Of a stretch of DNA of 64,000 nt, positions 10,960 to 63,841 are shown one piece after another (the first letter of the stretch is position 1; each line of letters starts with the position of its first letter). The stretch is from an uncultured Chloroflexia bacterium (GTDB taxonomy: Bacteria; Chloroflexota; Limnocylindria; Limnocylindrales; CSP1-4): NCBI GenBank assembly GCA_963704145.1, contig CAVPHB010000002.1:67878-131877 (forward strand), written 5' to 3'. A program made the translations under genes and the position numbers. Below the pieces are notes generated by a model. The model made no database searches. It saw only the letters and a list, made by a program, of their open reading frames with translations, and was not told where the DNA came from.

Positions 10960-11131
10960 TCCTGTTTCCTCCGCTGATGTGGGTTCATGGCGCAGTCTCT
11001 GGGTCGTCCCTGTTGCCCTGCCTTTGAACAGCATGTGAGTTCACACACGGGGCGGGCCCCGGTCGTGAGCGTTCTCAAAGAAAGGCCCTTCGGCCATTGC
11101 GCGACTGGGCGCGACGACGGTTAATGGGCAC

Positions 11132-21860: not shown

Positions 21861-21954
21861 CGGCGGCCCTCCTCTTTGCCGACCGGCTTGGCTGACCAGA
21901 TTACGCACCGGGCGCCGCTTGCGCCGGCGCTGGGTATTCTGCTATACCTTCGCG

Positions 21955-23049
21955 GTGACCGTCAAAAGTGCGCGCACAAATGTGCAGGCGGGGCAGGCTG
22001 ACGCACTGTTCGTTGATATTGCGCAGGCCTACTACGAGCAGAACCTGACCCAGCAGGAGGTCGCCGCGCTGTTCGGCATCTCGCGGACGCAGATCTCGCG
22101 CTACCTGCGTGAGGCGCGGGAGCGCGACATTGTCCAGATCCGAGTTGTCCGGCGCGGCGCGCGGGTCGCTTCCGTGGAAGCGGACCTCAGGCGCCATTTC
22201 GTCCATCTGCGCGAGGTGGTCGTGGCCGCCGTGTTCAGCGACGACGAGGCCATCCGCCGGCGGGCCGTGGCACGCGAGGTGGCGCGCCTGCTCGAGCACA
22301 GCGTGCGGCCGAACACGACCATCTGCTTTGGCGCGGGCCGGACGCTGGCCGAAGCAGTCAACGTGCTCAAGCCGCGCCGGCTGACCGGTGTCACTGTCGT
22401 CCAGGCACTGGGCAATGCCGGCCATGAGGCGCTGCACATCGACTACAACGCCGTTTCGAGCGCTGCTGCGGCCGCCTTCGGCGGGCGGGTGGTGCAGATC
22501 AACGCGCCGGCCATCCTGGGCCGCGGCATGCGCGCGGCAGATCTGGAGGCGTCCAGCCCGCAGATCCGCACTGCGATCGCGGTCGCCCGCGGCGCGCAGA
22601 TGTTCGTCCTCGGCCTGGGCTCGATGAGTGGCGATCAGATCTACGTCCAGACCGGCCTGGTCTCGCCGGCCGAGCTGGACGAGGCCAAGCGCGGCGGCGC
22701 CGTGGGCGATATCTGCGGCAACTTCTACGACCTGGCCGGCCGGCCGCGCCCCGGTCCTTTCGCCGACCGGGTGGTCGGCATCCGCCTGTCCGACCTGGCG
22801 GCTGCGCCGACATCGATCGGCTGCGCCAGCGGCAGCGAGAAAGTGCCATCGATTATCGGCGCCCTCGAAGGGCGCTACCTCAATGTCCTGGTGACCGACG
22901 AGCTCACCGCGCTCGGTGTGCTCGAGTCCATCGGCGATCGATCGCCGTCGTCACGAGCCGACCGCTTGTCGTCGAATGGCCGGGTGGGCCACGAGGCGGA
23001 CGCAGTCGGTGGGGAGGTTCGACCAGGGGGCGCCGAAGGCAGGCGATAA
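21955..23049 (+). CDS. SorC/DeoR-type sugar-phosphate-sensing transcriptional regulator
   Basis: HTH (LTQQEVAALFGISRTQISRYLREARERDIV) plus a sugar-binding domain (VQALGNAGH..., GDICGNFYD). GTG start at 21955. Divergent from the aldolase gene. Confidence 0.8.
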   Translation: MTVKSARTNVQAGQADALFVDIAQAYYEQNLTQQEVAALFGISRTQISRYLREARERDIVQIRVVRRGARVASVEADLRRHFVHLREVVVAAVFSDDEAIRRRAVAREVARLLEHSVRPNTTICFGAGRTLAEAVNVLKPRRLTGVTVVQALGNAGHEALHIDYNAVSSAAAAAFGGRVVQINAPAILGRGMRAADLEASSPQIRTAIAVARGAQMFVLGLGSMSGDQIYVQTGLVSPAELDEAKRGGAVGDICGNFYDLAGRPRPGPFADRVVGIRLSDLAAAPTSIGCASGSEKVPSIIGALEGRYLNVLVTDELTALGVLESIGDRSPSSRADRLSSNGRVGHEADAVGGEVRPGGAEGRR

Positions 23050-25169: not shown

Positions 25170-27343
25170 GTGGATCGTTGGCTCGAAGTAGATATCGACT
25201 GGTTCGGAGACCCACCGTGGGACCGGGCTCAGCTCGAGTTCGTCGAGCGCACCCTGCCGCTGCTGGCCGGGGAATGCGATCTGCGCGGCATCTGCTTCAA
25301 CATCGGCTGGCTGGCCGATCTCGTCACCGAATGGAGCGGCAGCGGCGCTCAGCCGCTGCCGCTCCGCTCTCGTCGGTACGCGCGCTGGGCTCGCCTGGCC
25401 TATGACGACCTGCGCGCATTCCTCGCGTCGCTGCGTGCGGTCGCCGCATCGCACGGCCTCGCCGATCTCAAGCTCGGGCGTGCTGATCGCCGGTCTCGGC
25501 CAGGTCGTGGCGCCACCCGACACGGGCAGCATGTACGACCTCTACAGCAACTGGTACGACCGCCATCCCGAGCTCTACCCGCTCGACATCTCACCGCTGC
25601 CGGGCCCGGACCTGGACCCGCGCGTGCCGATGCACGCGGACTCGTACCGCTACGTGACGCGCCCCGACGGCATCGCCGAGGGAGAGCCGTTCCCCGAGTT
25701 CTTCGGTGCGCAATGGGGCGCGGTGGCGCAGTATCTCGGACTCGACCTCATCCACCTGCGCGACGGCATGCTGGGACCAATGCTCTACACCCGCGTCGGC
25801 CCGTACGGCAGCGTTGCATCGGCCGATCCGGCCGAGAACCGCAGCTGGACAGACGCCGTCAAGCGCCTGTTCCGCGCCTGCAAGCAGGCCCATCCCGGTG
25901 GACTGGTGATGGCCTATTCGAGCGGCCTCAGCGGCACGGCCGAATGGCTGGCCGGCTGCGTCGATCTCGAGGACATCGTGGCCGATGGCGCCCTCGACAT
26001 CTTCGTCGACCAGACCTGGGGCGGCGCGTGGCAGGACTGGTGGGACGACACCTGGAAGGGCTGGACCTTCCAGCTCGCCTACCTGCTCGGCCACGGCGCC
26101 CAGATAAGGGGCGGCAACGTCGGGCGCAGCGCGACGGGGGGGGCGTTTGGCGGAGCGGCGTGCCGGCAATACAACCTGATCGAGACGTGGGACGGCTGGG
26201 AGCCGTGGGACACGCTGCATGACACACCGGGCAAGCTCGAATGGGCGATCTGGGCCTTCGCGCACGCCTGCAGTGCTGGGCCGCGATGGGCTACCGGTGG
26301 TGCCCGAGGGCGCCTACATCAGCTGGATGAACGACTGGAACAAGCGGCTGATCAGCGCGCGCGACGTCGACTTCCTGGCGTCCAGGCTGGCCGCCGCCGA
26401 GACCAGCGCGGGGGGCATCGAGGCCACGTTCGGTCCGTTGCTTGTCCATGACCGGGACGGGCTGACCGCCAAGTACGAGCAGGACCCGCAGAGCAACGCC
26501 AGCGAGTGGGCCGAGGACCAGGCTGGCATGCTCCTCAAGTGGGGCGCCGGCATGATGACCGCGACGCGCGCCGAGTGGCTGCCCGAGCGCTGGCCGGACG
26601 GCCTGCTGTGGCAGCTCCCCGGGGCTGCCGCCGCGGCCCGCCTCGACGGGCCGTACGGAGCGCTCGTTGCGAGCGGCCGCGCCGACCGGATCGACAGCCG
26701 AGTGCTGGCGGCCGCGGGTGTTGCGCCGACGGGCAACCAGGTGCCCGATGGCTATCGGCTCGGGGCGCCCACCAGCGCCGACCTGGCGCCCGAGGAACGC
26801 GTCCATCTGCCGCAGCGCGCCGAGCTGCGCGCAGAGCAGGGAACGTGGGTCGGCTATTCGTCGGACGGCATGCCGCTGCTCGCCGGACGCCACGGCATCT
26901 ACCACTGGCAGCCGCCCGATCTGGCCGATCCGGGCAACCCGCTGCTGCCCCATTCGCAGATCGGCACCGTCAACCCGTACGTCGAGGTTGCGCGCCTGAT
27001 CAACCGGCGCGCCGCGGAGGCCGGCGGGTTGAGCGTCGAGCCCATGGCGGCGCACGAGCCGGTGACGGTCAGTTGCTGGCGCAGCGACGGACAGGTGCAC
27101 CTGCTGCTGGGCAACCTCGAGTCGGGCTGGATCGGCGATTCGCGTTTTGCGCGCCACGTCACGGTCAGGCTGCCGCGCGCGCGCGTCGGCCTGGAACCCG
27201 GGGTGGCCTACCAGGGCGTCCACCTGAACGGGGGCAATGAGCCGCTCGCGACCGATGACGAGCTCGATGGCTCGGTCGTCTCGTTCACGATCGAGGTGCC
27301 GCCGCAGGGCTGCATCGTCCTGCGCCTGGAGCGGGCGGCGTGA
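25170..27343 (+). CDS. Large (~720 aa) Trp-rich protein of unknown function, possibly a glycoside-hydrolase-like enzyme; two frame breaks
   Basis: Continuous sense reading across track ORFs 25170-, 25402-26451 and 26219-27343, with junctions near 25485 and 26265. Motifs DQTWGGAWQDWWDDTWKGW and NLIETWDGWEPWD. No signal peptide. Sits between the SBP and permease genes. Confidence 0.5.
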
Positions 27344-28322
27344 GCGGCGCGACGACATCTGCGCGCACGTCGGCGGGCCGCCAGCGCATGGTGCGCGTGG
27401 TCGACTTCCTGGCCGACTACGGCTTCATCGTCTTCTTCGCCATCTGGGTCATCTTCCTGTCGCTCATGACGGACGACGTTCTTGACCGAGCGCAACATCC
27501 CGCTCCTTCTGCGCCAGGCGTCGATCTATGCCATCCCGGCCATCGGCGCAACCTTCGTGATCCTGCTCGGCGAGCTCGACATCTCGTTCGGCAGCGTGCT
27601 CGGCGTGGCCGGCGTCGCCGCGGCCGAGGTGCTCGTCGCCGGCCACGACCCGGTCGCTGGCGATCGGGGCGGCGATCCTGGTCGGCGCGCTGGTCGGACT
27701 GGTCAACGGCACGCTGGTGACCTTCTTCCGCATCCCGTCGGTGGTCGCCACGTTGGGCATGCTCAGCGTCGTCATCGGCCTCGGGATCGTCTACACCAAG
27801 GGCCGCGCGATCACCGGGCCGTTGCTCGACCCGATCGACTGGCTGGCCCAGGGCTACATCGGCATCGTGCCGATACCGGTCGTGCTGATGTTCGTGGGCT
27901 ACACGATCGCCTGGCTCGATCCTCAACCGAACGGCATTCGGGCGCCCACGTCTACCTGACCGGCGACAACCGCGAGGCGGCGTTCCGCGCCGGCATCGCC
28001 GTCAATCGCGTGCGCATGACGGTCTTCATCGCGGCCGGCGCACTGGCCGGGCTGGGCGGCGTCGTGCTCGTCTCACGGGTGTCGCAGGCCACCGCGTCGC
28101 TGGGTGACTCGGCACTCTTCCCGGTGCTCACCGCGGTCATCCTCGGCGGCGCTGGCCTGCAGGGCGGACGCGGCCGGATCGAGAACACGCTGATCGCCTC
28201 GGTCTTCCTGGCCAGCCTGCTCAACGGCCTGATCCTGCTCGGGGTCGATGCCGAGTACCAGCGCATCCTGCTTGGCGCGCATCCTGATCGTGGCCATCTC
28301 GCTCGATCGGTTCAGGGACTAG
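27340..28322 (+). pseudogene. CUT2 (ribose/xylose-type) ABC transporter permease, reading frame broken at least 3 times
   Basis: Pieces in three frames: FLADYGFIVFFAIWVIFL / LTERNIPLLLRQASIYAIPAIGATFVIL / FFRIPSVVATLGMLSVVIGLGIVYT / YLTGDNREAAFRAGI...TAVILGGAGLQGGRG...LDRFRD*. The GTG start overlaps the previous stop. Confidence 0.7.
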
Positions 28323-28324: not shown

Positions 28325-29825
28325 ATGACAGTCGCCAGGTCCGTGTTGTCGATGCCCAACCAGCTGATCAACGGCCGCTGGGTGCCGTCCGCAACCGGGC
28401 GCACCGTGGCCGTGCACAGCCCGGCCAACGGCGAACAGATAGCCGAGGTCGCCGCGGGCGATGTGCGCGACGTCGAGGCGGCCGTCGCCGCGGCGCGGCG
28501 CGCCTTCGACGAGGGCCCCTGGCCGCGCATGGCGGCCAGTGAGCGCGGGCGCTATCTGCTCCGCATCGCGGCGCTGATCGAACGCGACACGGCCGAGATC
28601 GCGCACCTCGAAAGCCTCAACAACGGCAAACCGATTCGCGAGAGCAGCCGGATCGACGTGCCGCTATCGGCCGACTGCTTCGAGTACTGGGCCGGGTACG
28701 CGACGAAGATCACCGGCGAGACGCTGCCCGTGCCGGGCGACGTGCTGAGCTACACGCTGCGCGAGCCGCTCGGGGTGGTGGCCGCGATAACGCCGTTCAA
28801 CTTCCCGTTGCTGCTCGCGAGCTGGAAGCTGGCGCCGGCGCTCGCGGCGGGCAACACGGTCGTCATCAAGCCCGCTTCGGATACGCCGCTGACGACCATT
28901 CGGCTGGGCGAGATCTGCCAGGAGGCGGGCCTGCCGCCGGGCGTGGTCAACGTGGTCATCGGCGACGCGCAGGTTGGCCAGGCGCTGGTCGACCACGACC
29001 AGGTCGACAAGATCACCTTCACCGGCTCGACCGAGGTGGGCAAGATGATTGCCGCCGGAGCGGCGGGCAACCTGAAGCGCGTGTCGCTCGAGCTCGGTGG
29101 CAAGGCGCCCAACATCGTCTTCGCCGACGCACCGCTCGAGGACGCCGTTGCCGGCGCCCTGTTCGGCGTTTACTGGACGCAGGGCGAGATCTGCACTGCC
29201 GGCTCACGGCTGCTCGTCCAGCGGCCGATCTTCGATGACTTCGTCAGCCGCTTCACCGAACGCGCTCAGAAGCTGCGCGTGGGCGACCCGCTCGACCCGC
29301 GCACGGACGTCGGACCGCTCATCTCGGCGCGCCAGTGCGAGCGGGTGATGGAGCACATCCGCTCCGGCAGCGCCGAGGGCGCGCGGCTGCTGGCGGGCGG
29401 CAATCGGCCGACCGACGCGGCGCTCGCGCGCGGCCACTACGTTGCGCCGACGGTGTTCGTCGACGTGCGCCCCGACATGCGCATCGCGCGCGAAGAGATC
29501 TTCGGGCCGGTCGCCTCGATCATGCCCTTCGACGCGCCCGAGGACGCAGTCCGGATCGCGAACGACACCGTCTTCGGCCTCACTGCGGGAGTCTGGACGC
29601 GCGACGTCAAGCTTGCCCACCGGGTGGCGCGCGCGGTCAGGGCGGGCACGGTGTGGATCAACATGTACAACGTCGTCACCAGCGAAGCCCCCTTCGGCGG
29701 CTATCGGCCAGAGCGGCTGGGGGCGCGAGAACGGACCCCATGCGATCGCGGCTTTCACCGAGGTCAAGCACGTCTACGTCAACCTCGCCGAGCGCTCGAC
29801 CGATTGGTTCGGGGAGGCTTCGTGA
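28325..29825 (+). CDS. NAD(P)+ aldehyde dehydrogenase, classical non-acylating ALDH superfamily type (one frame break near 29700)
   Basis: LINGRWV, FNFPLLL, VIKPASDTP, FTGSTEVG, ELGGKAP, GEICTAGSR (catalytic Cys) and EEIFGPV. PFGGY then continues in another frame as QSGWGRENG...EVKHVYVNL. Confidence 0.85.
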
Positions 29826-30996
29826 TCGCCCGCAGTGCGTCTGCCCGGGTCGAGCCCGGCCCGGCCACGGCCGTGGCCGAAGTGCACCTGCCGCCGCGCG
29901 TCAACTTCGGGCGCGGCGCGCTGGCCACACTCGGCCCCGCCGCGCGTGGTTACGGGCGAATGGCCCTCCTGATCACTGACCGCGGCCTTGCCGCCAGCAA
30001 CATCGTGCGCTCGATCGAGCGCACGCTGGCCGAGGCCGGCGTCGACTGCGTCGTGTTTGATCGGGTCGAGCCCAATCCGACCATCGAGCAGGTCGAGGCG
30101 GCACTCGCCGCCGGCGCCGGCCAGGATGTCGCGGTCGTCGTCTCGGCCGGCGGCGGCAGTGCGCACGATTGCGCCAAGACCGTCGCCCTGGTGGCGGCCA
30201 ATGGCGGGGAGGTGCGCGACTACGAGGGCGTCGACCGCTCGGCACACCGCGCCATTCCGCTCATCTGCGTCAACACCACCTCGGGCAGCGGTGCCGACGT
30301 CAGCCGCTACGCGGTCATCAGCGACACCACGCGCGAGCTCAAGATGATCATCGCCGACCGCCACCTGATGCCGCGCCTGGCGATCAACGACCCGCTCCTG
30401 ACGGCCGGCCTGCCGCGCAACGTGACCATGGCGTCCGGGCTCGACGCGCTGACCCACGCGATCGAGGCGTACGTCTCGACGCTCGCCTCGGAGCTGAGCG
30501 ACGTGTACGCGCAGCGCGCGATCGAGCTGATCAGCGGCGCGCTCGTCCGGGCGGTCGAGGACGGCGACGACCTCGAGGCCAGGGACCAGATGATGCTCGG
30601 CGCGCTGATGGCCGGACTGGCCATCAACTCGGCGCTCGTGGGCGCGGTGCACGCCATGGCTCACCAGTTGGGCGGCGTGTACGACCTGCCGCACGGTGTG
30701 TGCAACGGGATCCTGCTGCCGCATGTCATCGAGTTCAACGAGCCCGCCGCGCGAACCCGCTACACGCGCATCGCGCGGACCCTCTCGGCCGGCGCATCGA
30801 GCTCGCCGATTGCCGGCGCTCGTGCGTACGCTCGGTGATCGAGTCGGCCTGCCCAAGCGGCTCTCCGATCTCGGCGTCGAGACGCGAGCGCATACCCGAC
30901 CTGGCGGCGCGCGCGATGCGCGACATGACCATGGCCACCAACCCGCGGCCGATGACCGAACAGGATGTCGCACACCTGTTCGAGCGGGCGCTGTGA
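29822..30996 (+). CDS. Iron-containing (group III) alcohol dehydrogenase (at least 2 frame breaks near the 3' end)
   Basis: GGGSAHDCAK, TTSGSGADVS, GLDALTHAIEAY and HAMAHQLGGVYDLPHGVCNG are Fe-ADH motifs. GTGA overlap with the ALDH stop. The tail (...[14 protein letters not shown]) is in a different frame. Confidence 0.8.
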
Positions 30997-31298
30997 GCAG
31001 CGCGGGCAGCGCCGTTGGCCTGATCGAGGTGCGCGGGCTGACGGGGGCCATCGGTGCCGCCGACGTGATGGTCAAGGCCGCGCCGGTGAGCATCGGCGCG
31101 CCGATCCTGATCGGTGACGGGCTGGTGACGATCGTCTGCCGCGGCGATATCGCCGCCGTCCAGGAAGCCGTCGCGGCCGGTGCCGAGGCGGCCGGGCGGC
31201 TGGGCACCTTCATCGGCGGCGCGGTCTTCGGCCGGCTGTTCCCCGAAGTCGGCCGGGCATTCCGCTTCGAAGGGAGGGAGCCGTCGGCAGAGACCTGA
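30993..31298 (+). CDS. BMC-H shell protein (single BMC domain), divergent C-terminus
   Basis: [29 protein letters not shown]...[28 protein letters not shown]. The GTG start overlaps the ADH stop (GTGA). Confidence 0.8.
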
Positions 31299-31353
31299 CC
31301 CGCTCATCAACCACAATAGGTTCGACATCGAATTGACATGGAGGAACGCACCA

Positions 31354-31650
31354 ATGGCAGAAACAACGCGCAGCGGCGGCACCGCCCTGGGGCTGGTCGA
31401 GACACGCGGCCTTGTGGCGGCAGTCGAGGCGGCCGACGCGATGGTCAAGGCTGCCCAGGTCACGCTCGTCTCGCGCCAGCTCGTCGGTGACGGGCTGGTC
31501 ACGGTCATCGTCAAGGGCGAAGTCGGCGCGGTCAAGACCGCCGTCGAGGCGGGTGGCATGGCCGCCCAGAAGGTCGGCGAGCTGGTCAGCCAGCACGTCA
31601 TTGCACGGCCCGACGACGCAGTCGAGGCGATCATGGTCGCCGAAGGGTGA
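31354..31650 (+). CDS. BMC-H shell protein (PduA/CcmK-like hexamer subunit)
   Basis: [85 protein letters not shown] upstream. Confidence 0.9.
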
Positions 31651-32311
31651 CCGTCGCCGCCCTGAGCGGCACCAGCCTGCGGGTGATCGCGCACGTCGAT
31701 CGGATGGGGCCGCAGTACGCGGCCTACTGGGGATTGATGGCGCAGGGCTCGATGCCGCGCGCCGGATATTCACAGTTGCTGGTCGAGGTCTCGCCGAGCA
31801 ACGCTGTCTTCCCATTGACCGACGGGCGATGAAGGCCAGCGACGTTCGCTCGGCGGGGACGTTGATCGAGCGCGACTTCGGCCTGCTCGAGCTGCACGCT
31901 CCGACACCGGACGTCGTGCTCGAGGCGGCCGAAGCGATCCTGGACGAGCTGGGCATGCGCTTCGCCGACCGGATCGCGCCCACGGTCGTCTCGTCACAAC
32001 TGCTGCCCAACATCGCGCCCGACCATAGCCAGCTGTTCAACAGGGTCCGGCGCGGGGCGTGGACGCTGCCCGGCGATTCCCTCTTCGTGCTGGAGGTCAC
32101 GCCGGCGGCGTACGTCTACGTGCTCGCCAACGAGCTCGAGAAGGCGGTCGACATCGAGCTGGTGCGGGTCGCGGGTACCGGCCTGTTCGGAAGGCTGCTG
32201 GTGGCCGGAACGGAGGCCGACGCGCATGCCGCGCAGGAAATCGCGCTGGCGGTCGTCGACCGGCTGCGCGGCGAAACAAACCCGGCGCCGGTCGGCGCGG
32301 GAGGAGGTTGA
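31647..32311 (+). CDS. Tandem BMC-domain shell protein (BMC-T-like, probably permuted PduB/EutL type); one frame break near 31825
   Basis: Two BMC-like halves: [21 protein letters not shown]...[10 protein letters not shown] and [52 protein letters not shown] overlap with the BMC-H stop. Paralog of 32609-33266. Confidence 0.7.
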
Positions 32312-32312
32312 G

Positions 32313-32604
32313 ATGCAGCTGGCTCGAGTCGTGGGCAGTGCCGTCGCGTCGGTCAAGGAGCCGCGCATGACGGGCATGAAACTGCTCCTCGTGGAGGAGG
32401 CCGCGCCGGACGGCTCGTCCGATGGTGGCGCATACATTGCGGCCGACCTTGTGGGGGCCGGCGAGGGCGAGCTCGTCATCGTGGTGCGCGGCTCACCCGC
32501 GGCCGCGATCAATCGGCATCGACGGCGCGCCGGTCGACGCAGCCATCGTGGCCATCGTCGAGTCGGTCCGCCAGGCCGGCACGATGACGTACGTCAAGTC
32601 CTGA
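32313..32604 (+). CDS. BMC-P vertex protein (EutN/CcmL family); one frame break near 32510
   Basis: MQLARVVGSAVASVKEPRMTGMKLLLVEE...AADLVGAGEGELVIVVRGS continues in another frame as IDGAPVDAAIVAIVESV. Confidence 0.8.
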
Positions 32605-32608
32605 GCAG

Positions 32609-33266
32609 GTGACAGTGGCCAGTCGCGAACTGCGCGCCTACGGGATCATCTCGCGCATGCAGCCGCGCTATGCGGCGTACGAGGCGACCGTGGCTGACGG
32701 CGATATTCCGCTGGCCGGCATGGCTCAGCTGTTCGTCGAGATCGCGCCCGGCAACGAGATCTATCTGCTCGCCGACGCGGCGCTCAAGGCGACCAACGCG
32801 CGGCCCAGCTCGCAGGTCGTGGAGCGCGAATTCGGGATGCTCTCGCTCCACGCCGACGATCCCCAGGAGGTGGCCGAGGCGGGCCGCGTCATCCTCGAGC
32901 GGATCGGGCTGACGATCGAGGATCGGCTGCGCCCAACCGTCGTCTCGCAGAACCTGATCACCAACGTGACCCCCTTTCAGGCACAGCTCATCAACCGCTT
33001 CCGCAAGGGCTCGCTGCTCGTGCCCCAGCGAAACGCTGCTGGTGCTGGAGGTCACGCCGGCGGCGTACGTGCTGCTCGCGGCGAACGAGGCCGAGCGGGC
33101 CGCCGACATCGACATCATCGACGTGCGCCCGATCGGCCGTTTCGGGCGCCTGTATGTCAGCGGTGATGAATCGAGCGTCCGGGCGGCCCAGGAACGCGCG
33201 CTGCAGGCGCTCGAGGACGTGACCGGCCGCGCATCGCCGGCGCAGACGCGGGGCAGTGCCGCATGA
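32609..33266 (+). CDS. Tandem BMC-domain shell protein (BMC-T-like paralog); one frame break near 33030
   Basis: QLFVEIAPGNEIYLLADAALKATNARP...EREFGMLSLH and [51 protein letters not shown]. Collinear with 31647-32311. Confidence 0.7.
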
Positions 33267-33842
33267 GCGGCGGCGGACCCGTGCTGTGGGTCGAGGTGAG
33301 CGATCGCGACGAGCTCGACGCGGCGCGGCGGTCGGGCGCGGCGGCGGTCATGGTCGTGAGCTCAACCAGCACGCTCTACGGCCGTCCGGGCGACCAGCTG
33401 TGCATTCGGATCGGCGAGCGCGATGCCCGTGTGCCGCCGGGCCAGCTGGCGGCGCGTCTGCCCGTTCGGGCCGGCATCCTGTTCCGCCCGACACCAGACA
33501 CGGACGAGCTGGTGGCCGATCTCGCGCGCCGCAGGCGGCCGCTCGCGGCGGACATCAGGAGCCAGGCCGAGGCTCGCCGCGCACTCGACTCCGGCGCGAC
33601 CGCGCTCGTCGTCCACGACCCGGTGCTGGTCCGCGCGCTGCGTGATGAGCTGTCCGGCATGGGCGCGGCCGGTACCGGGCCGGCGAAGGCAGTGCCGATC
33701 ATCGGCGTGGCCGCCGGGAGCGACGCGGTCAACGAGATGCTCGGCGCCGGCGCCCAGGGCCTGCTGGTCAGGGCCGCCGAGCTGCCCGCGCTGCTGGCCA
33801 TGCCTGCCTTCGCCGCGCTGACCGCGCCGTGCGCCGCCCGTC
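33263..33842 (+). CDS. Hypothetical protein (weak beta/alpha-barrel-like repeats); 3' end undefined
   Basis: ATGA overlap with the BMC-T stop. VEVSDRDELDAARRSGAAAVMVV and IRSQAEARRALDSGATALVV look like beta-alpha units. There is no in-frame stop before the ligase gene, so the end coordinate is a guess. Confidence 0.35.
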
Positions 33843-35500
33843 GTGCGCAGCGCAAGCGCCGGCGCGACTCGCGCCTCGGCTCCACGCGGCGCGACCATCG
33901 GCGCGGCACTCGATCGCGCGGCTCGCTCATTCGGACCGCGCGAAGCACTCGTCCACGTAGCGCGCTCGCAGCGCCTGACGTACGCCGAGCTGGCGGCGGA
34001 GGCCAAGAGCGTGGCGCGGGCGCTGCTCGCGCTGGACGTCACGCCCGGCGAGCGCGTGGTCGTCTGGGCGCGCAACGCCCTTGAGTGGCCGCTCATCCAG
34101 CTTGGCGCGGCGTACGCCGGGGTCGATCGTCGCGACGGCCAACGCCAGCCTGTCGGATGAGGAGCTCGAGCAGATCATCGCCAACTGCGGCGCGGCGCTC
34201 CTGTTCGCCGGCGCGCACCGCACACCGCGCACGGCGCTGCTCGACCGGCTGGCCCGTGGCGCCGGCCCGCGTGGCCTGCGCCACGTCGTCGCGCTGCCGG
34301 AGGTCGAGTCCGTGCCCGAGTCGGTCACCGGCTGGGAACAGTTCGTGGCGCGGGCGGCGCAGGTCAGCGAGTCCGACCTGACGCGCTCGGCTGCGCGCAC
34401 CCAATCGGACGACGTGATCATGATCCTGTACACGTCGGGCACCACCGGGCGTGCCGAAGGGCGTCCAGCTGACCCATCGCGCGATGCTCCAGAACGCGGC
34501 CGCCGTGGGCGCCAACATCCGGCTGCTCGACGGCCGATCGCCTGTGCCTGCCCGTGCCGTTCCACCACTGCTTCGGCGCGGTGATGGGCTCGCTCGCCGC
34601 GCTGACCTACGGCGCGACCCTCGTCCTGCCGGCCGAGGCGCTTCGATCCGGGCGCCGTGCTGCGCGCCGCCGCAGGCCGAGCGCTGCACCGCCCTGTACG
34701 GCGTGCCAACGATGTTCGTCGCGCTGCTCGAGCATCCCGATCTGACCCGGACCGACCTCTCCAGCCTGCGCACCGGTATCGTCGCCGGCGCCCCGGTCCG
34801 CTCGAGCTCGGCCGGCGGCTGAGCCACGAGCTGCACCTGCCCGAGCTGGTCGTGGCGTATGGCCTGACCGAGGCTGCGCCGGTCGTCACCCAGACGTCGA
34901 TCGACGATCCGGAAAGTGTTCGCCTGGGCAGCGTCGGGCGGCCGATCCTGGGCGCAGAGGTCCGGGCCATAGATCCGCAGACCGGCGCGGCCGGTCCCGC
35001 CGGGCACGCCGGGCGAGCTGCTGACGCGCGGCCCGATGGTGATGCGCGGCTACTTCGACATGCCCCAGGCCTCGGCCGAGGTGATCGACCGCCAGGGCTG
35101 GCTGCACACAGGCGACCTGGCCACGTACGACCAGAACGGAGTGTGGCGCATCGTCGGCCGGATAAAGGACCTGATCATTCGCGGCGGCGAGAACATCGAT
35201 CCAGCGGCGATCGAGGCCGCCGGTCGGCGCCACCCGGCCGTCGCCGACATGCACGTTGTGGGCGTGCCGTCGGAGTACTACGGCGAGGAGATCTTCGCCT
35301 GGGTGCGCTTGGCGGCCGGTGAGCAGATCGACGAGCAACAACTGCGCAGCCATCTCGAACAGCACCTCGGGCGGTTCGAGGTGCCGCGCTACATCCGCTT
35401 TGTCGACTCGTTTCCGATGACCGAGTCGGGCAAGGTCCAGAAGAACCGCCTGCGCGAGGACGCGCGCCACGCGCTGGCGACCATGTCCGCCGCCGGCGGG
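33843..35500 (+). pseudogene. AMP-forming acyl-CoA ligase (FadD/AMP-binding family), frame broken at least 5 times; true 3' end uncertain
   Basis: [70 protein letters not shown] and SGKVQKNRL appear in order across several frames. The last frame stays open to 36097. Confidence 0.7.
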
Positions 35501-35797
35501 CCGATCAACGCGCCGGTCATCGCGCCGGTCATCGCGCCGGGCGTGGCGCCGGTCGTCGCATGGACGGCCAGCGATGGGCGGCCGCCACTGCCGCTGCTTC
35601 CGCCCAAGAACGCCACGCAGGCCATCGTCGAAGCCGCGAGTGCGGCCCCGGCCGGCGGCCCCGACAGCGACCCCGCCTCGACCGAGCGCCACGGCCCCGT
35701 CCCGGGACCGCGCTCGGCCAACCTCCCACCACGCAGCGGCTGGCACCGGCCCGATGGCCCGGGCTGGCGCTGGCGCCCACGCAAGGAGCTGACTGAC

Positions 35798-37085
35798 ATG
35801 TCGGAGACTGATCGGCCCTCGACCGCGGGTGAAGCGCCCGCTTCATCGGTCGATCTCGACGAGGTCCGCCAGCGCGGGCAGCGCATCAAGACATGGGGCA
35901 TCGTGGGCGACATCCGCGAGCAGATCGAGGCAACCGGCGAAGAGCCGATCATGTACAAGGCGCTCGGCACGCCGTCCCAGACCCAGCACCCGTTCAACCT
36001 GTTCGGCGACATCAGGAGCCAGCCGTCGGCGCTGGCGCGAGACGTTCCAGCACGCCGACGAGATCGCGCAGGTCGCGCGCACGCTCAACGAGCGTGACTT
36101 CACCGGCATCATCGGCCTTGGTTCGGGCACCTCGCAGTTCGTGGCCCAGGTCGCCAACGCCGCGTTCGCGCGTTTCGCGGGCATCGCCGGCGGCGACTAC
36201 GACTCGCAGGCGTTCCTGCGCTACCCGCCGCCGCACGACTACAGCAAGCTGCTGGCGGTCGCCTACTCGGGCAGCGGGAGCACAGTCGACACCGTCGCCG
36301 CTGCCCGCGAGTGCCGCCAGCGCGGCGCCTACACGCTGTCCTTTACGAGCGTCGAAGGCAGCCCGGTGGTGCAGGCCACCGACGCGCGCATCCTGACCGC
36401 GGGTGGCTTCGATACCGGCGGCTCGGACACGTTCCACTACACCACCCGCGTCGCCGCCGCGATCTATCTGGCGCTCGAGCTGGGCAAGCTCCGGCTGCCC
36501 GGAGCGCACGACTACGACGGCCTGCAGCGCCAGCTGCTCGAGACGCCGCGCCTGATGGCCGACGTGTTCGATGCCGTCGACAAGCGCTGCCGCACCATCG
36601 CCGATATGTTCCTCGGCGTGCGCAGCGTGCTCGTCGTCGGCGCCGGTGCGAACTACGGGACGGCCGAGGAGATCGCGCTCAAGTTCGACGAGATGAGCCA
36701 TATCCCGGCCAAGGCAATGTCGCCCGGCCGCCACATCCACGGCGCTCTCGGCCTGACCGAGGAGTCGATCCTGACCGTGCTGGTCGCGCCGCCGGGCGAG
36801 TCCTACGGCGATCTGTACGACATCGCCCGGGTGACCGAGCAGCTCAAGAGCCCGGCCATCGCGATCGTCAGCAACGGCGACGAGAAGATCGCCGATATCG
36901 TCGACTACGTCATCCGCCTGCCGATGGAGGACGAGACGATCTTCGCGGTCCTCGCCGTGCTCCCCGGCCAGCTGCTGCCGTACTGGTGCGGCGTTGGGCT
37001 CGGGCTCAACCCGGACACGCAGCGCTCGAACGTGCCCAAGCACGCACGGGTGTGGAACATGCTCTTCCCGCCCGGGACGCACTGA
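35798..37085 (+). CDS. Double-SIS-domain sugar-phosphate isomerase/deaminase (AgaS/FrlB/GlmS-C-like) with ~60-aa N-terminal extension; one frame break near 36030
   Basis: AAGGAG RBS before the ATG at 35798. HPFNLFGDIRSQPSAL then (frame change) RETFQH...IIGLGSGTSQF, AVAYSGSGSTVDT, VVGAGANYGTAEEIALKF. Confidence 0.7.
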
Positions 37086-37111: not shown

Positions 37112-38188
37112 ATGCCAGGCGACCCCCGGACCGGCGCGATCGGCACGGCCAGCACAGCCGGTGCCGCTGCCGTGCAACGGCGGGTCGCGGTCATCGGTCC
37201 GTTGAACATGGATCTGTTCATGCGCGGGAGCGCGCCACTCAAGCGCGACGAGCTCAACTCGTGGGTCGGTCCGTCCGAAGTCGAGCTGCTCGTCGCCGGC
37301 TCGATCGGCTACACGGTGCAGGTCTTCGCCCGGCTGGGCTGGCACGTCGACGTCTGCTCGACCGTCGGGTCGGATGCGTTCGGGGCAACGATCAGGCACG
37401 AGCTCGAGGCGCGCGGCATCGACTGCCGCCACCTGGCCCAGGCCGACGGCGTGACCGCGATCGCGCTGTACGTGATGCTGTGGGGCGGCACGAAGCGACC
37501 GATGACCTACCGGCTGCCCGGCTTCGAGCCCTGGCCCGACCCGCCGCCGGCGCTCGACAGCGATGCGCCGGCGGACGGCGAACCACCGCTCACGCTGCTC
37601 CATTCGGGTGGCTTGCTGCACTTCCCACAGATGTGGCGGCGCGGCATGGCCGAGCTGTTCGCGCGCACCAGGGCGCGCGGGGTGATGACGTCGATCGATC
37701 CGCAGTTCCCACTGACCGACCTGCCCGCTCCGTGGCTGCCGCACGTCGCCGACGTCGTCGGCCATGCCGATGTGCTGCTGTGTGACGAGCACGAGGGCCG
37801 GATGCTGTTCGAGCAGACGTCGGTCGAGGGGATGATCCAAGCCGGCCACAAGGCCGGGCCGCGCATCGTCGCCATCAAGCGTGGCGCTGCCGGCGCGGTA
37901 GTCAGCGACGGCCGGACGATGATCAGCCAGCCCGCGGCGCACGTCGACCAGGCCCTGGTGCGCGAGGCGGTCGGTGCAGGCGATGCCTTCGATGCCGGCT
38001 TTCTGGACGCACTCGCGGACGGTGCCGACATCGCCACGGCGGTCCGATTTGCGACCGCCGCGGCAGCGGTCAGCCTGGCCGGCCGCGGCGGCGCCGAAGC
38101 GATCGGCGGCCGCGCATCGGTCAACGCGGCGTTCGATCTCGTCCCGGACTCCAGGGCGCTCGAGCCCAGCAGCATGCCGGCCGGATGA
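37112..38188 (+). CDS. PfkB-family carbohydrate kinase
   Basis: Intact frame. C-terminal GAGDAFDAGFL (PfkB signature 2 with catalytic Asp) and VAIKRGAAGAVV. Confidence 0.75.
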   Translation: MPGDPRTGAIGTASTAGAAAVQRRVAVIGPLNMDLFMRGSAPLKRDELNSWVGPSEVELLVAGSIGYTVQVFARLGWHVDVCSTVGSDAFGATIRHELEARGIDCRHLAQADGVTAIALYVMLWGGTKRPMTYRLPGFEPWPDPPPALDSDAPADGEPPLTLLHSGGLLHFPQMWRRGMAELFARTRARGVMTSIDPQFPLTDLPAPWLPHVADVVGHADVLLCDEHEGRMLFEQTSVEGMIQAGHKAGPRIVAIKRGAAGAVVSDGRTMISQPAAHVDQALVREAVGAGDAFDAGFLDALADGADIATAVRFATAAAAVSLAGRGGAEAIGGRASVNAAFDLVPDSRALEPSSMPAG

Positions 38189-39123
38189 TCGTCGGCGTCA
38201 CCCTCGCGCCGGCCGTCGACCGCACCGCCCGCGTCGAGCGACTGGGGTTCGACACCATCCTTCGACCCACGGCGATGCGCGTTCTGCCCGGTGGCAAGGG
38301 CATCAATGCCTGCCGCGCGGCACATCTGCTCGGGGCGCAGGTGGCGACAACGGGCATCGCGGGCGGCCACGCCGGCCGCTGGCTGGTCGAATCGCTGCAG
38401 CGTGAGGGGCTCAACCCGCACTTCGTGATCGTGGAGGCCGAGACGCGGACGACCTACGTCACCACAGATGACGCCGGCCGTTCGGTGCTCGTCTACGAGC
38501 CCAGCCTGGCGATCCCAGCCGACGCCCTTGAGAAGCTGCTCGAGCTGCTCCGGACGGACCCGCTCAGCTCCGCCGAATGGGTGATCTGCTCTGGGTCGCT
38601 GCCGGCCGGGATCGGCGACGACGCGTATGTCAGGCTGGTGCGCGCGGCGCATGACGCGGGCCAGAGATGCCTGATCGACGTGGGCGGGCCGGTGCTCGAG
38701 CGAACGCTCGCCGAACAACCGGACGTGGTCAAGGTGAGCGCGTCGGAGGCCCGGGCGGCAATCGGAGCGCCGGCGCACGCGCGCGCGGCGGACATGGCCC
38801 GTGCGCTGGCTCGCCGCGGCGCACGGCTGGCTGTCGTGACCGACGGACCGCGGGGCGCATCAGCATCGGACGGCCGCCGGTCGTGGACGATCCGTGTGCC
38901 GCGCGTCAGGGCGGTCAACCCAATCGGGGCAGGCGACGTGTTCAACGCCGGGCTAGTCGTCGCGCTCGGCGCCGGCGCGATGAACGAAATGGCGCTCGCT
39001 CGCGCGGCAGCGGCTGCAAGTGCGAGCGTGCTCGAGCTCGGCGCGGGCGAGGTCGATCCAGTGCGCGTGGCCGAGATGCTGCGGCTGGTCGTCGTGCGCG
39101 AGGTGGGTCATGCAGCGATCTGA
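38185..39123 (+). CDS. PfkB-family kinase of the 1-phosphofructokinase / tagatose-6-phosphate kinase (FruK/LacC) type
   Basis: MIVGVTLAPAVDR...LPGGKGINACRA...PIGAGDVFNAG. ATGA overlap with the preceding kinase. Confidence 0.75.
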   Translation: MIVGVTLAPAVDRTARVERLGFDTILRPTAMRVLPGGKGINACRAAHLLGAQVATTGIAGGHAGRWLVESLQREGLNPHFVIVEAETRTTYVTTDDAGRSVLVYEPSLAIPADALEKLLELLRTDPLSSAEWVICSGSLPAGIGDDAYVRLVRAAHDAGQRCLIDVGGPVLERTLAEQPDVVKVSASEARAAIGAPAHARAADMARALARRGARLAVVTDGPRGASASDGRRSWTIRVPRVRAVNPIGAGDVFNAGLVVALGAGAMNEMALARAAAAASASVLELGAGEVDPVRVAEMLRLVVVREVGHAAI

Positions 39124-39200: not shown

Positions 39201-39902
39201 TCAGTTCAGGCGTTCGTCCGCGGCGCCGGCCCTGGACGTACATCGACATCTGGCGCCTCGCTCAGCTGCGCGCCGAACGCGATCGTCGAGGCGGCTGAGC
39301 AACTCACGCGGCTCGAGGCCGCGGAAATCGGCGATCACCAGGGCAGCGCCGACGAGCAGGTCGGGTCGGCCCAGCGACGCGACTCCGACACACGCAGCTC
39401 CGGCCGCGTGCGCCGATGCGATGCCAGCCTGCGTGTCCTCGAAGACGACGCACTGCGCGGCGCGCAGACCAAGCGCATCGGCGCCGGCCACGTAAGGATC
39501 GGGCGCCGGCTTGCCGCGACCGACCCGGTCGTGGTCGACGATGACCTCGAACGCGTCCGCCAGGCCGATGGCGTCGAGGGCAAGCCGGATGTTCGTCCCG
39601 GACGCCGAGCTGACCACCGCGCACGGAACCCGAGCGGCGAGCGTGGCGCGGACGAACTCAGCCGCGCCGGGTATGGGACGCAGTGCGGCGCCGGCAGCCA
39701 CCTCGGCGCGTTTGTCGTCGATGCCGGCGGCGACGAGGTCGGCCGCCGCAGCTGGATCGAACGCGAAGACGTCGGTCAGCACGTCGAGCGTCCGCCGCCC
39801 GAACATTCGATCGACTATCTCGCGATCGGTGAAGGACAGCCCGCGTTGGGCGGCGAAGGAGCGCCAGCCGGTCATGACCAGCGCGTGCGTGTCGACCAGC
39901 AC
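39201..39902 (-). CDS. HAD-superfamily phosphatase (beta-phosphoglucomutase-like subfamily); true start upstream of the track start
   Basis: SSASG (motif II), GKPAPDPY and VVFEDTQAGIASAHAAG (motifs III/IV). Motif I, FDLDGVLVDT, begins in frame at 39903-39923 with no canonical start codon before it. Confidence 0.65.
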   Translation of the reverse strand: MLVDTHALVMTGWRSFAAQRGLSFTDREIVDRMFGRRTLDVLTDVFAFDPAAAADLVAAGIDDKRAEVAAGAALRPIPGAAEFVRATLAARVPCAVVSSASGTNIRLALDAIGLADAFEVIVDHDRVGRGKPAPDPYVAGADALGLRAAQCVVFEDTQAGIASAHAAGAACVGVASLGRPDLLVGAALVIADFRGLEPRELLSRLDDRVRRAAERGARCRCTSRAGAADERLN

Positions 39903-39961: not shown

Positions 39962-40765
39962 TCAGGCCTCGCGTGCCGCCGACGTGGCCAGGCCGGCGAT
40001 CATGCGCACGATCTCCTCGTGGTCCGTGTCGGTCGTGTCGCGCACGCCGGCGAGCCGGCCGAGGCGCATGACCGCGATGCGGGTGGAGAGCGTGAAGACG
40101 TGGTCGAGGTTGTGGCTGACGATGATCTGGGTCAGGCCGCGCTCGGCCAGGCGGCCGATCAGGCTCTGTACGCGCGCCGCTTCCTGCAGCCCGAGCGCCG
40201 CCATCGGCTCATCCATGATCAGGATGCGCGAGCCCCAGTGGACGGCACGGCCGATCGCGATCGCCTGGCGCTGGCCACCCGAGAGGCGGCGCACCTGCTG
40301 GCGAACCGACGGGATGTTGACGTTCAGGTCGGCCAGCGCTGCGGCCGTCTCGCGCCGCATCCGGCCCGTGTCGATGTACCGGAACGGGCCCCAACCGCGA
40401 GTCAGCTCGCGGCCCATGAAGAGGTTCTCTGTCACATCCCGGTGATCTGCCAGGGCCAAGTCCTGATAGACGGTTTCGATGCCCGCCGCACGCGCGGCCG
40501 CCGGGCTGCCGAAACGCATCGAAACGCCGTCGACCTCGAGGTTGCCCTGGTCGGGGTGAAGCACGCCGGCGAGCATCTTGATCAACGTGGTCTTGCCCGC
40601 GCCGTTGTCGCCCACCAGCGCCGTAACGGTGCCCGCCGGAAACTCGAGGGTGACGTCCTGGACCGCGTGGACACCGCCGTACGCCTTGGAGATACCGCGC
40701 GCCGCCAAGAGCGGGACGGCGGCAACCACGGTCGAGCCGTTGGCGATCTGCATCGGCTGCTCCAC
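39962..40765 (-). CDS. Sugar ABC transporter ATP-binding protein (single NBD)
   Basis: GDNGAGKTT (Walker A), LSGGQRQAIAIGRA (signature), ILIMDEP (Walker B). Intact frame. Confidence 0.85.
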   Translation of the reverse strand: MEQPMQIANGSTVVAAVPLLAARGISKAYGGVHAVQDVTLEFPAGTVTALVGDNGAGKTTLIKMLAGVLHPDQGNLEVDGVSMRFGSPAAARAAGIETVYQDLALADHRDVTENLFMGRELTRGWGPFRYIDTGRMRRETAAALADLNVNIPSVRQQVRRLSGGQRQAIAIGRAVHWGSRILIMDEPMAALGLQEAARVQSLIGRLAERGLTQIIVSHNLDHVFTLSTRIAVMRLGRLAGVRDTTDTDHEEIVRMIAGLATSAAREA

Positions 40766-40923: not shown

Positions 40924-41935
40924 ATGGACTTCGGATTCACGCTCAAGACGGATGAGTCGATCGACAGGACGATCGCGCTGACGCGCGCAGGCCGAGGCGG
41001 CCGGCTTCAAGTACGGCTGGCTCTTCGACTCGCACGTCCTGTGGAAAGAGCCATACCCGCTGCTCACGATCATGGCGCTCAACAGCGAGCGGCTCCGCCT
41101 TGGTACCTGCGTGACCAACCCGGCCACGCGAGAGCCGTCAGTGACCGCCAGCGCCCTGGCCACCCTCGACGTGATCAGCGACGGCCGGATGGACCTGGGT
41201 ATTGGCCGCGGTGATTCGGCGCGCCGCGTGATGGGCAAGCCGCCGACAACGCTCGCGCGCCTGGAGGAAGCGACCAATCTCATACGCGACCTGGTCGAAG
41301 GACGGACTGTCAACCAGGACGGCACGGACATTCAGCTGGCCTGGACACGCGGCGACAAGCTGCCGGTCTGGATCGCCGGCTACGGCCCCAAGGCGCTCGA
41401 GCTCATATCGCGCATCGCCGACGGCGTCATCCTCCAACTCGCCGATCCGGACCTGATCCGCTGGTTCGTGGGCCAGCTCCACGACTACGCGCGCCAGAAC
41501 GGCCGCGACCCAAGCGAGATCAAGGTCATGGCCGCGGCTGCTGCCCACGTCGGTGACCTCGCCGATTGCCGTGATCGGGTGCGCTGGTTCCCGGCGCTCG
41601 TCAGCAACCACGTCGCCGACCTGATCGAGCGCTACGAGCCCAAAGACCTGCCCCAAGAGCTGACCGACTACGTGCGCAAGCGGACCGCCTACAACTACCA
41701 GCACCATGCCGAAACGGGCTCAGACAACGCAGCGTTCGTTGCCGACGACGTGGTCGATCGCTTCTGCGTCATCGGTTCGGTCGACGACCACAAGCGCAAG
41801 CTGGCCGAGCTTGCCCAGGCCGGCGTCGACCAGTTCAACATCTACCTCATGAACGGCGACGAGGAGCAGACCCTGGAGGTCTACGCGCGCGAGATCATCC
41901 CGGCCACCAGGAACCTGGTGGCGTCGCGCGGCTGA
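40924..41935 (+). CDS. Luciferase-like (LLM class, probably F420-dependent) oxidoreductase; one frame break near 40985
   Basis: MDFGFTLKTDESIDRTIALTR, then (frame change) AGFKYGWLFDSHVLW...LGTCVTNP...GRMDLGIGRGD...VDQFNIYLM. Confidence 0.7.
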
Positions 41936-48361: not shown

Positions 48362-48415
48362 ATCGGCGGCGGCTCAGCCGTCGCCACCATTCGGCCAAGG
48401 CCTGAGGAGGGACAG

Positions 48416-62102: not shown

Positions 62103-63841
<1,739 letters not shown>

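Follow-up and report, generated by a model that had tools for sequence, protein, structure and literature searches.

A conserved bacterial microcompartment locus of uncultured Chloroflexota whose cargo set matches that of no named locus type

The subject of this work is a 64,000-nucleotide stretch of DNA (hereafter the window; 64 kb, G+C ~70%) from an uncultured Chloroflexia bacterium (assembly GCA_963704145.1, contig CAVPHB010000002.1), and in particular the bacterial microcompartment (BMC) locus that it carries. This locus is real and conserved, and its cargo set is not described for any named BMC type: five shell genes are joined to an aldehyde dehydrogenase (ALDH) of predicted CoA-independent type, to an iron-containing alcohol dehydrogenase (Fe-ADH), and to one giant gene in which a barrel, an acyl-CoA synthetase and a sugar-phosphate isomerase-like domain are fused. 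We give a probability of about 0.5 to the reading that this is a functional, conserved and unnamed metabolosome-type locus of soil Chloroflexota/Dormibacterota-lineage bacteria, whose chemistry would combine disproportionation of an aldehyde with ATP-dependent ligation of the acid formed.

The initial annotation, made by inspection of the window, had placed five shell genes at 30993-33266, namely two hexamer proteins (BMC-H), two tandem-domain paralogs and one pentamer protein (BMC-P), and these were all found in that place:

30993..31298, + strand: BMC-H 1 (H1), a divergent hexamer protein with orthologs in every related locus; PF00936, 67.5 bits
31354..31650, + strand: BMC-H 2 (H2), the canonical and most conserved shell protein; PF00936, 95.4 bits
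31647..32311, + strand: BMC-T(dp) 1 (T1), a tandem permuted trimer protein of the CcmP/CsoS1D type; deletion frameshift at ~31824
32313..32604, + strand: BMC-P (P), an EutN/CcmL pentamer protein in single copy; PF03319, 88.8 bits; frameshift at ~32508
32609..33266, + strand: BMC-T(dp) 2 (T2), a paralog of T1 (~42-46% identity); PF00936, 32.5 bits; frameshift at ~33026

The check with Pfam hidden Markov models (HMMs) proposed in that annotation was positive for H1, H2, P and T2, while T1 scored just 18.3 bits with PF00936, under the cut-off, and was recognized instead through its ortholog, which reaches 179.7 bits with the NCBIfam CcmP model and contains PF27545 (CsoS1D_N). The T2 ortholog also contains PF27545 and reaches 227.6 bits with the CcmP model; in the PDB it matches CcmP (4HT5, E=7e-57), HO BMC-T proteins, the RMM protein MSM0275 and CsoS1D. 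Because of the matches to CcmP, CsoS1D, HO-T and MSM0275, both paralogs are assigned to BMC-T(dp), and an EutL/PduB-type identity was ruled out. H2 is 83-90% identical among loci and 57% identical to EutM. The window holds no further shell genes, as EutM and EutN tblastn searches match these five only. Shell genes with PF00936 and PF03319 domains are clustered here, which is the mark of BMC membership; the shell gene set is complete, and the locus is a real BMC locus.

Start-stop overlaps had been described as chaining the shell genes to their neighbours on both sides. Such overlaps were indeed read from the sequence at the ALDH/ADH, ADH/H1 and H2/T1 junctions (GTGA) and at T2/fusion (ATGA), while the chain is continued at the other junctions by a 55-nt H1/H2 spacer holding a Shine-Dalgarno sequence and by gaps of 1 nt (T1/P) and 4 nt (P/T2). 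Another ATGA overlap joins two kinase genes downstream (K1/K2). Overall, translational coupling is tight from the ALDH gene through the fusion gene.

The genes of the locus are interrupted in the assembly, and the interpretation of these breaks bears on all that follows. In a plot of codon-position GC content, the coding frame jumps within evident genes, and the jumps correspond to single-base insertions or deletions (indels), the base being either extra or missing, in short G or C runs; an example from the ALDH is GGCTATCG[G]CCAGAGC, in its PFGGY(R)QSGWGRE motif. Approximately 15 such sites need repair in the 8.8 kb from the ALDH to the fusion gene, as might be expected if the locus of this genome were a decaying pseudogene cluster, with nothing functional to explain. 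We consider that account very improbable. Indel density is similar across the window, in which most long genes are broken, including those for malate dehydrogenase (twice), a UvrD/PD-(D/E)XK helicase-nuclease (~5 times), an amidohydrolase and a second ALDH; broken spans elsewhere are, for example, 62804-63775 (-), 3263-6947 (-), 48362-49816 (+) and 59056-60470 (-). Moreover, the repaired locus frames contain no in-frame stops, their GC content at third codon positions is 0.85-1.0, and the repaired proteins share 60-94% amino acid identity with intact orthologs. Because the same type of break affects the malate dehydrogenase, helicase, amidohydrolase and second ALDH genes, the indels of the locus were treated as assembly errors, most likely those of an unpolished long-read assembly, and decay of the locus was ruled out as their cause. 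Frame-repaired or intact-ortholog sequences were used for all proteins described here, and the input to the Pfam scans consisted of the locus genes together with coding segments of at least 40 codons, chosen by codon-position GC content, outside 21-41 kb.

Two dehydrogenase genes precede the shell genes:

28325..29825, + strand: non-acylating NAD(P)-dependent ALDH, 499 aa after repair; PF00171, 614 bits; one frameshift at ~29708
29822..30996, + strand: Fe-containing (type III) alcohol dehydrogenase; PF00465 and PF25137; frameshifts at ~30818 and ~30882

The ALDH had been read from its motifs as a member of the ordinary non-acylating superfamily, and the comparisons bear this out. Both the general base (E256, in ELGGKAP) and the nucleophile (C290, in GEICTAG) are present, and the closest PDB relatives are hydroxymuconic-semialdehyde dehydrogenase, ALDH1A2, ALDH2, phenylacetaldehyde dehydrogenase and betaine-aldehyde dehydrogenases (E~1e-150), as against 22% identity (E=3e-4) to E. 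coli EutE. Its best NCBIfam models are BADH, StyD and HpaE, all under cut-off. By sequence, then, the enzyme belongs with the ordinary non-acylating ALDHs, for which CoA independence is predicted. The Fe-ADH is 35% identical to EutG, and its nearest NCBIfam models (ErcA, lactaldehyde reductase and YiaY) also stay under cut-off. Neither dehydrogenase carries a conserved amphipathic terminal extension or a canonical encapsulation peptide.

Canonical PDU, EUT and GRM loci combine a CoA-acylating PduP/EutE-type ALDH bearing an encapsulation peptide with a phosphotransacylase (PTAC), an ADH and an aldehyde-generating signature enzyme. Here, the ADH is represented by the Fe-ADH gene, with a putative role in NAD+ recycling, and none of the other elements was found within the window, in agreement with the earlier observation that its 64 kb hold no PduL/Pta-like or PduP/EutE-like gene. 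The Pfam scans of the selected coding segments detected neither Pta (PF01515) nor PduL (PF06130), E. coli EutD gave a best tblastn match of E=0.8, and EutE matched the locus ALDH no better than at E=2.5e-4, with 24% identity. Diol dehydratase, EutBC, glycyl-radical and class II aldolase families were likewise absent from the scans, and the sole aldolase of the window is a LacD-type enzyme encoded outside the shell operon. The only other ALDH gene of the window (59056-60470, -) has no link with the locus, from whose shell genes it is separated by 23 kb; its product contains a EFACGIPNLLKG motif, which we take to be typical of CoA-acylating methylmalonate-semialdehyde dehydrogenases.

Downstream of T2, an unknown protein and a separate acyl-CoA ligase had been annotated. 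This division had to be abandoned, as the two are domains of one open reading frame of ~1270 aa (33263-37085, +), which ends beyond the limit that had been set for the locus and is built as follows:

33263..33840, + strand: domain 1, an orphan small TIM barrel (transaldolase/FSA-like), recognized with AlphaFold2 and Foldseek
33843..35480, + strand: domain 2, an AMP-forming acyl-CoA synthetase (ANL); PF00501, 321 bits; PF13193, 65 bits; ~7 frameshifts
35481..35830, + strand: a linker rich in Pro and Ala, variable in sequence apart from the conserved short motifs LPLLxxK and GWxRPxxxxW
35831..37085, + strand: domain 3, a double-SIS sugar-phosphate isomerase/deaminase of the GlmS-isomerase type; PF01380; one frameshift at ~36034

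In syntenic loci of related metagenome-assembled genomes (MAGs), T2 is followed by a single gene of 1221-1245 aa with AMP-binding, AMP-binding_C and SIS domains (Pfam). An ortholog tblastn covers positions 33278-37082 of the window in successive frames, every stop being bypassable by a change of frame, and the full-length architecture is found in at least ten loci (L001, L002, L004, L006-L009 and L012-L014).

The N-terminal domain of the fusion (~190 aa, ~40% conserved) has no Pfam match and no invariant K, D, E or H across 13 orthologs. A word-indexed protein search with the domain gave a single protein (P0121), which matches the domain of the window at 100%. An exhaustive search of 1.84 billion representative proteins returned 11 matches, the longer of which (572-1236 aa) match at their N-termini; in our reading, each of the 11 is a copy of the fusion or a piece of one, and the domain is truly rare and confined to it. 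The AlphaFold model is a barrel of eight strands, predicted with confidence (pLDDT 88), and Foldseek places it nearest to short transaldolases/fructose-6-phosphate aldolases (3R8R, 1VPX and 4XZ9; TM 0.6-0.69, E 2e-8). Short transaldolases are decamers. Enzymes of this group are marked by a Schiff-base lysine on beta4 and a catalytic Asp/Glu, which the domain does not display: when aligned by hhalign with E. coli FsaA over the beta4-alpha4-beta5 stretch (VKVPVTAEGLAAIKMLKAEG against vLVPasaaGLavLaeakaRGR), the Schiff-base K85 of FsaA stands opposite the near-invariant L73, in an alignment that is weak (probability 6%, E=0.006). Our reading of the model is that of a pseudo-aldolase, probably catalytically dead. 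A catalytic ribulose-phosphate barrel (HPS/NanE/ThiE-like), an identity that would have led to a formaldehyde route, was also considered and was rejected for lack of a Pfam match or an invariant catalytic residue and for the fold, which is nearest to transaldolase/FSA.

The synthetase domain keeps the A3, A5, A7, A8 and A10 motifs and is 61% conserved. Its nearest structures are feruloyl/fatty-acyl (8WEU, 2.5e-78), 4-coumarate, oxalyl and malonyl-CoA ligases, and it scores 566 bits with NCBIfam PRK12583, under cut-off; no equivalog or specific synthetase model reaches its cut-off. The two motifs of the linker, judged by their conservation, could be shell- or partner-binding peptides. The SIS domain (C-terminal ~400 aa) is the best conserved part of the fusion (79%), and matches the GlmS isomerase domain 1MOQ (3.5e-24) and NagB-II 8EOL (1e-11) in the PDB.

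A scan of one genome per species, at the level of species MAGs, recovered 15 loci, 13 of them distinct. The carriers are named as uncultured Chloroflexia, Candidatus Dormibacterales/Dormiibacterota, Candidatus Limnocylindrales, Chloroflexota, one Anaerolineaceae, one Alphaproteobacteria and Chloroflexi bacterium GWC2_73_18. Wherever the contig permits, the gene order is the same: SorC regulator, binding protein, 720-aa protein and permease in the 5' part; ALDH, Fe-ADH, H1, H2, T1, P, T2 and fusion in the middle; and the PfkB kinases K1 and K2, a HAD phosphatase (-) and an ABC ATPase (-) in the 3' part. A luciferase-like monooxygenase gene (40982-41932, +) follows the locus here and in its closest relative (L001), and is not found in more distant loci.

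The outer genes of this arrangement form a sugar operon:

20937..21869, - strand: LacD-type class I tagatose-1,6-bisphosphate aldolase (DeoC/LacD family); PF01791, 82.8 bits; frameshifted near the 3' end
21982..22977, + strand: SorC/DeoR-type sugar-phosphate-sensing regulator, kept in all loci; PF04198 (Sugar-bind), 176 bits
23086..25142, + strand: periplasmic sugar-binding protein with two Peripla_BP_4 modules, an internal tandem duplication; one frameshift
25170..27343, + strand: ~720-aa protein with a GH42-like three-domain glycoside-hydrolase fold (AlphaFold2/Foldseek); two frameshifts
27340..28322, + strand: ABC sugar permease (BPD_transp_2); several frameshifts
37112..38188, + strand: PfkB-family sugar kinase K1, in all BMC-containing and BMC-less versions
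38185..39123, + strand: PfkB kinase K2 of the 1-phosphofructokinase/tagatose-6-phosphate kinase subfamily; TIGR03168, 226.6 bits, over the 216.4 cut-off
39201..39902, - strand: HAD-family sugar phosphatase
39962..40765, - strand: ABC transporter ATPase of the same uptake system

The aldolase reaches 208.5 bits with NCBIfam NF009498, over the cut-off of 184, and its gene is divergent from that of the SorC regulator, a position that is kept in L008, L009, L012 and L017; in L002 and L019, a class II aldolase (PF01116) is found instead. The two modules of the sugar-binding protein are near-identical, and the L001 ortholog is likewise doubled (696 aa), while that of L002 has a single module (359 aa), for which reason the duplication is regarded as real and recent, and not as an assembly artefact. 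K1 matches generic PfkB kinases in the PDB, with YdjH as the best, without a clue to its substrate.

By sequence, the 720-aa protein matches nothing in Pfam, NCBIfam or the PDB. The AlphaFold2 model of an ortholog (P0122; pLDDT 92.8, pTM 0.94) was matched by Foldseek to the GH42 beta-galactosidases 5E9A and 4UNI, a GH164 beta-mannosidase and an archaeal exo-beta-D-glucosaminidase (E 4e-17 to 1e-13). The family counts more than 260 homologs, all those named in their source being 'hypothetical protein', with many invariant Asp, Glu and Trp residues, and its gene always lies between the binding-protein and permease genes. Most probably, these proteins make up a glycoside hydrolase family that has not been described before.

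In Actinobacteria and in other metagenome contigs, homologs of this protein stand in the same transporter cassette, with no BMC genes. In a Streptosporangiaceae MAG (L019), the operon comprises the ABC ATPase, SorC regulator, binding protein, 720-aa protein, permease, HAD phosphatase, a SIS enzyme, two PfkB kinases and the class II aldolase; L020 has the SIS enzyme, a PfkB kinase and a GatZ/KbaZ-like protein, and L022 the SIS enzyme, a PfkB kinase and the 720-aa protein. The free-standing SIS enzymes of these three operons share 55-66% identity with residues ~840-1245 of the fusion, the 412-aa enzyme of L019 standing at 66%, and none of the three operons has ALDH, ADH, ligase or shell genes. 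Because of these sister operons with a free-standing SIS enzyme, the ALDH, the Fe-ADH, the five shell genes and the barrel-synthetase extension are recognized as one block, which entered an older sugar operon at a point between its permease and SIS genes; the locus is thus a mosaic. In Microcella sp. (CP075524.1) and a relative (L018, L021), a PfkB kinase is accompanied by an FAD amine-oxidase-family protein, which replaces the SIS enzyme and whose gene, in Microcella, overlaps that of the kinase; this replacement suggests a substrate with an amino group. The ancestral operon probably served uptake and breakdown of a glycosidically bound, probably amino, sugar. From its predicted enzymes, the core route reads most simply as glycoside cleavage, phosphorylation, SIS-catalyzed isomerisation/deamination to a ketose 6-phosphate, a second phosphorylation and aldol cleavage, a sequence that resembles Aga/tagatose-6-P-like or chitobiose-like pathways.

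For the organelle module, we infer the following scheme, in which it is a matter of proposal which proteins occupy the shell, which aldehyde is involved and what the synthetase does. The shell would confine an aldehyde, which the ALDH would oxidise to the free acid with NAD+, and NAD+ would be regenerated from NADH as the Fe-ADH reduces another molecule of the aldehyde. The synthetase domain would then convert the acid into a CoA ester at the expense of ATP, in place of the PduP/EutE plus PduL/Pta chemistry, and a PTAC would therefore not be needed. The two gated T(dp) paralogs could pass ATP, CoA and NAD(H) in and out. Since the ALDH and ADH have no terminal extensions, the fusion, with its barrel, linker motifs and dimerising SIS domain, is a candidate organiser of the core: it may tether the synthetase and the sugar-phosphate enzyme to it, with barrel and linker motifs substituting for the absent encapsulation peptides. 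The wiring suggested in the initial annotation, with an NAD(H) balance between ALDH and ADH combined with ATP-dependent activation of the acid, is plausible as a prediction. Sulfoquinovose, fucose/rhamnose and fructosamine routes were considered as sources of the aldehyde; no evidence separating them was found, and none of them is claimed.

Several points weigh against this scheme. Function in this strain depends on taking the frameshifts in most long genes as assembly errors. Moreover, the Pfam scans found no aldehyde-producing signature enzyme within the shell operon, the sister operons run the sugar route without an aldehyde module, and the products expected of the aldolase are dihydroxyacetone phosphate and glyceraldehyde 3-phosphate, none of them a classic volatile aldehyde. 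In addition, ALDH-ADH gene pairs elsewhere (e.g., gbsAB) usually perform sequential oxidation rather than disproportionation. Finally, encapsulation of the enzymes is a prediction, as are the use of the ALDH product by the synthetase and the formation of a thioester rather than an amide.

In the main rival to this scheme, which we hold to be possible, if on the unlikely side, the Fe-ADH would oxidise an alcohol to the aldehyde within the shell, the ALDH would convert it into the acid and the synthetase into the CoA ester, with exit of both NADH molecules by way of the T(dp) pores. Candidates for the alcohol are a diol, an amino alcohol and an aglycone that the GH42-like enzyme would set free. 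The order of the two genes, ALDH and then Fe-ADH, resembles that of alcohol-to-acid pairs, and the family matches point the same way (BADH and aminobutyraldehyde dehydrogenase for the ALDH; ErcA, lactaldehyde reductase and the choline dehydrogenase GbsB for the ADH), as do the glycosidase-like protein conserved in the operon and the pair of T(dp) paralogs, also found in RMM1. However, no source of alcohol was found, the sister operons have the same glycosidase with neither ADH nor ALDH, and in classical metabolosomes the ADH serves internal NAD+ recycling (PMC8217296).

It is also conceivable, if improbable in our view, that the ANL domain is not the CoA-ligase partner of the ALDH. It might instead adenylate an acid and link it, as an amide, to the amino group of the hexosamine-6-phosphate on which the SIS domain acts, or the whole fusion might be a sugar-pathway enzyme that stays outside the shell, with just the ALDH and ADH inside. 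A GlmS-type isomerase/deaminase is part of the same polypeptide as the synthetase, and is the best conserved domain of the locus and one whose substrate class bears an amine; some ANL enzymes do form amides, and no model of a specific acyl-CoA synthetase is reached at cut-off. On the other hand, its nearest solved relatives are all CoA ligases, and the domain is seen just alongside shell, ALDH and ADH genes and never in BMC-less operons, which ties it to the organelle. Disproportionation followed by ligation remains the reading that we prefer.

Metabolosome models assume a CoA-acylating ALDH and a PTAC that recycles CoA. A wider proposal, which we put forward tentatively and regard as doubtful, is that the locus represents a new functional class of metabolosome, with a core made of a CoA-independent ALDH and an ATP-driven synthetase, and with (amino-)sugar-phosphate processing coupled to the organelle. 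In place of encapsulation peptides, its core would be held by the fusion as a scaffold, built from the dead transaldolase-like barrel, the dimerising SIS domain and the linker motifs. Apart from this proposal, the locus would be a second, independent case of a CoA-independent ALDH in a BMC, after ARO, and would add an ATP-dependent route to the CoA ester; the orphan pseudo-aldolase barrel and the linker motifs are candidate parts of a new device for encapsulation or scaffolding. The lineages that carry it are abundant in soil, uncultured and little studied. The sugar operon exists both in a shell-bearing and in a shell-less version, a natural before/after pair in which the benefit of shell enclosure is directly testable.

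Elsewhere in the window, low-complexity tandem repeats (11900-12460, both strands) separate a response-regulator gene (11099-11800) from a histidine-kinase gene (12531-13640), and encode Pro/Glu/Thr/Lys-rich peptides (…EKPEPTEKPEP…) or, on the other strand, LPGLVR repeats. At 13681-17007 (-) lies the gene for a protein of 1109 aa that combines an adenylate/guanylate cyclase domain with an AAA_16 ATPase domain; the long stretch after them has no Pfam match. Adjacent genes for an EAL protein (44704-45561) and a membrane GAF-GGDEF protein (45527-47254) form a cyclic di-GMP turnover pair (44704-47254, -).

As to its place among known systems, the initial annotation could not place the locus in a published type, and judged its wiring closer to the incomplete-core (MIC/RMM-like) classes than to PDU/EUT/GRM. 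Regarding the former, the trees of the 2021 BMC catalog contain A2X23_10740, A2X23_10745 and A2X23_10750 of Chloroflexi GWC2_73_18 (the T1, P and T2 proteins of L014) under the label bmcType=UA (main) (omitted), which we take to mean unassigned, so that no named type was given by the catalog authors. In these trees, the GWC2_73_18 T(dp) falls in the 'carolinaBlue' clade beside BUF3, and its BMC-P is a 'purpleBlue0 outlier'; the blue T(dp) clade is grouped with MIC1/2 and BUF2/3 in the main text of the catalog (PMC8217296). The full HMM table of the catalog contains none of PF00501, PF01380 and PF00294, no locus of this content appears in the four of six parts of its type descriptions (Supplementary Data 2) that were covered, and a full-text literature search returned no paper describing the locus, or tying its Dormibacterota/Chloroflexota carriers to microcompartments.

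The alternative that the locus is an ordinary member of a described type (MIC1/MIC2, RMM1, SPU or ARO), different merely in looks, appears most improbable, as it fails for each type on the defining enzymes and the GWC2_73_18 copy was left without a named type; each type does share some feature with the locus. The supposed nearness to MIC held for the shell and not for the ALDH. The closest annotated relatives of the shell proteins are those of MIC1/MIC2 (T(dp) 53% and 47%, BMC-P 46%, BMC-H 61% identity), here compared in the MIC1 locus of Rhodococcus S2-17 (per the catalog tree) and a Methylibium locus of the same content, both plasmid-borne (Rhodococcus oxybenzonivorans pRB98 and Methylibium petroleiphilum RPME01). 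They too have an ALDH without encapsulation peptide, no PTAC, and a T(dp) in the blue clade shared by MIC and BUF. However, their ALDHs are EutE-like, with 31-34% identity to EutE and ~26% over ~170 residues to the locus ALDH, and they are accompanied by Ldh/Mdh-type and Zn-ADH dehydrogenases, EutJ and one T(dp), with no AMP-binding, SIS or PfkB genes; our locus has two T(dp), and neither an EutE-related ALDH nor PF02866 (Ldh/Mdh-type with a cupin-like extension).

RMM1/AAUM loci (aminoacetone utilisation, Mycobacterium/Rhodococcus) share two T(dp) and one P with the locus, which has two H proteins. The T(dp) proteins of the locus, however, resemble CcmP, HO and MIC1 more closely than MSM0271/0275, and the PF00202 phospholyase, the PF01636 APH-type amino-alcohol kinase and the short-chain dehydrogenase/reductase of that type were absent from the window scans. 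In SPU, the sugar-phosphate context and the linkage of a DeoC/LacD-family (PF01791) aldolase and a sugar-phosphate isomerase with shell genes recall our locus. There, a DERA-type aldolase and RpiB (PF02502) are encoded within the locus, together with a PduP-type ALDH bearing an encapsulation peptide, a triplet of BMC-P genes and, in most cases, a PTAC, whereas here the LacD-type (NF009498) aldolase lies outside the operon, the isomerase is of the GlmS-type SIS family, the ALDH is non-acylating by sequence, BMC-P is single, and no PF02502 was found in the window. ARO, the aromatics type of Actinobacteria, shares with the locus an ALDH of CoA-independent type without encapsulation peptide, and the ARO enzyme has been reported as the only BMC-associated ALDH that lies outside the CoA-dependent family and has no such peptide (PMC10470539). 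ARO combines ring-cleavage dioxygenases with a minimal H and P shell, in contrast to the locus, with its two T(dp), its sugar context and no dioxygenase (PF02900 was not found in the window scans).

The sugar operon itself is best compared with the Aga/tagatose-6-P and archaeal chitobiose routes, which use an AgaS or GlmD SIS deaminase, a PfkB kinase, a tagatose-bisphosphate aldolase and an exo-beta-glucosaminidase. The same logic is seen in the glycosidase-like protein, kinase, GlmS-type SIS domain, 1-phosphofructokinase/LacC-type kinase and LacD or class II aldolase of the locus, which differs from all of these routes in having a shell, an ALDH/ADH pair and a SIS-fused synthetase.

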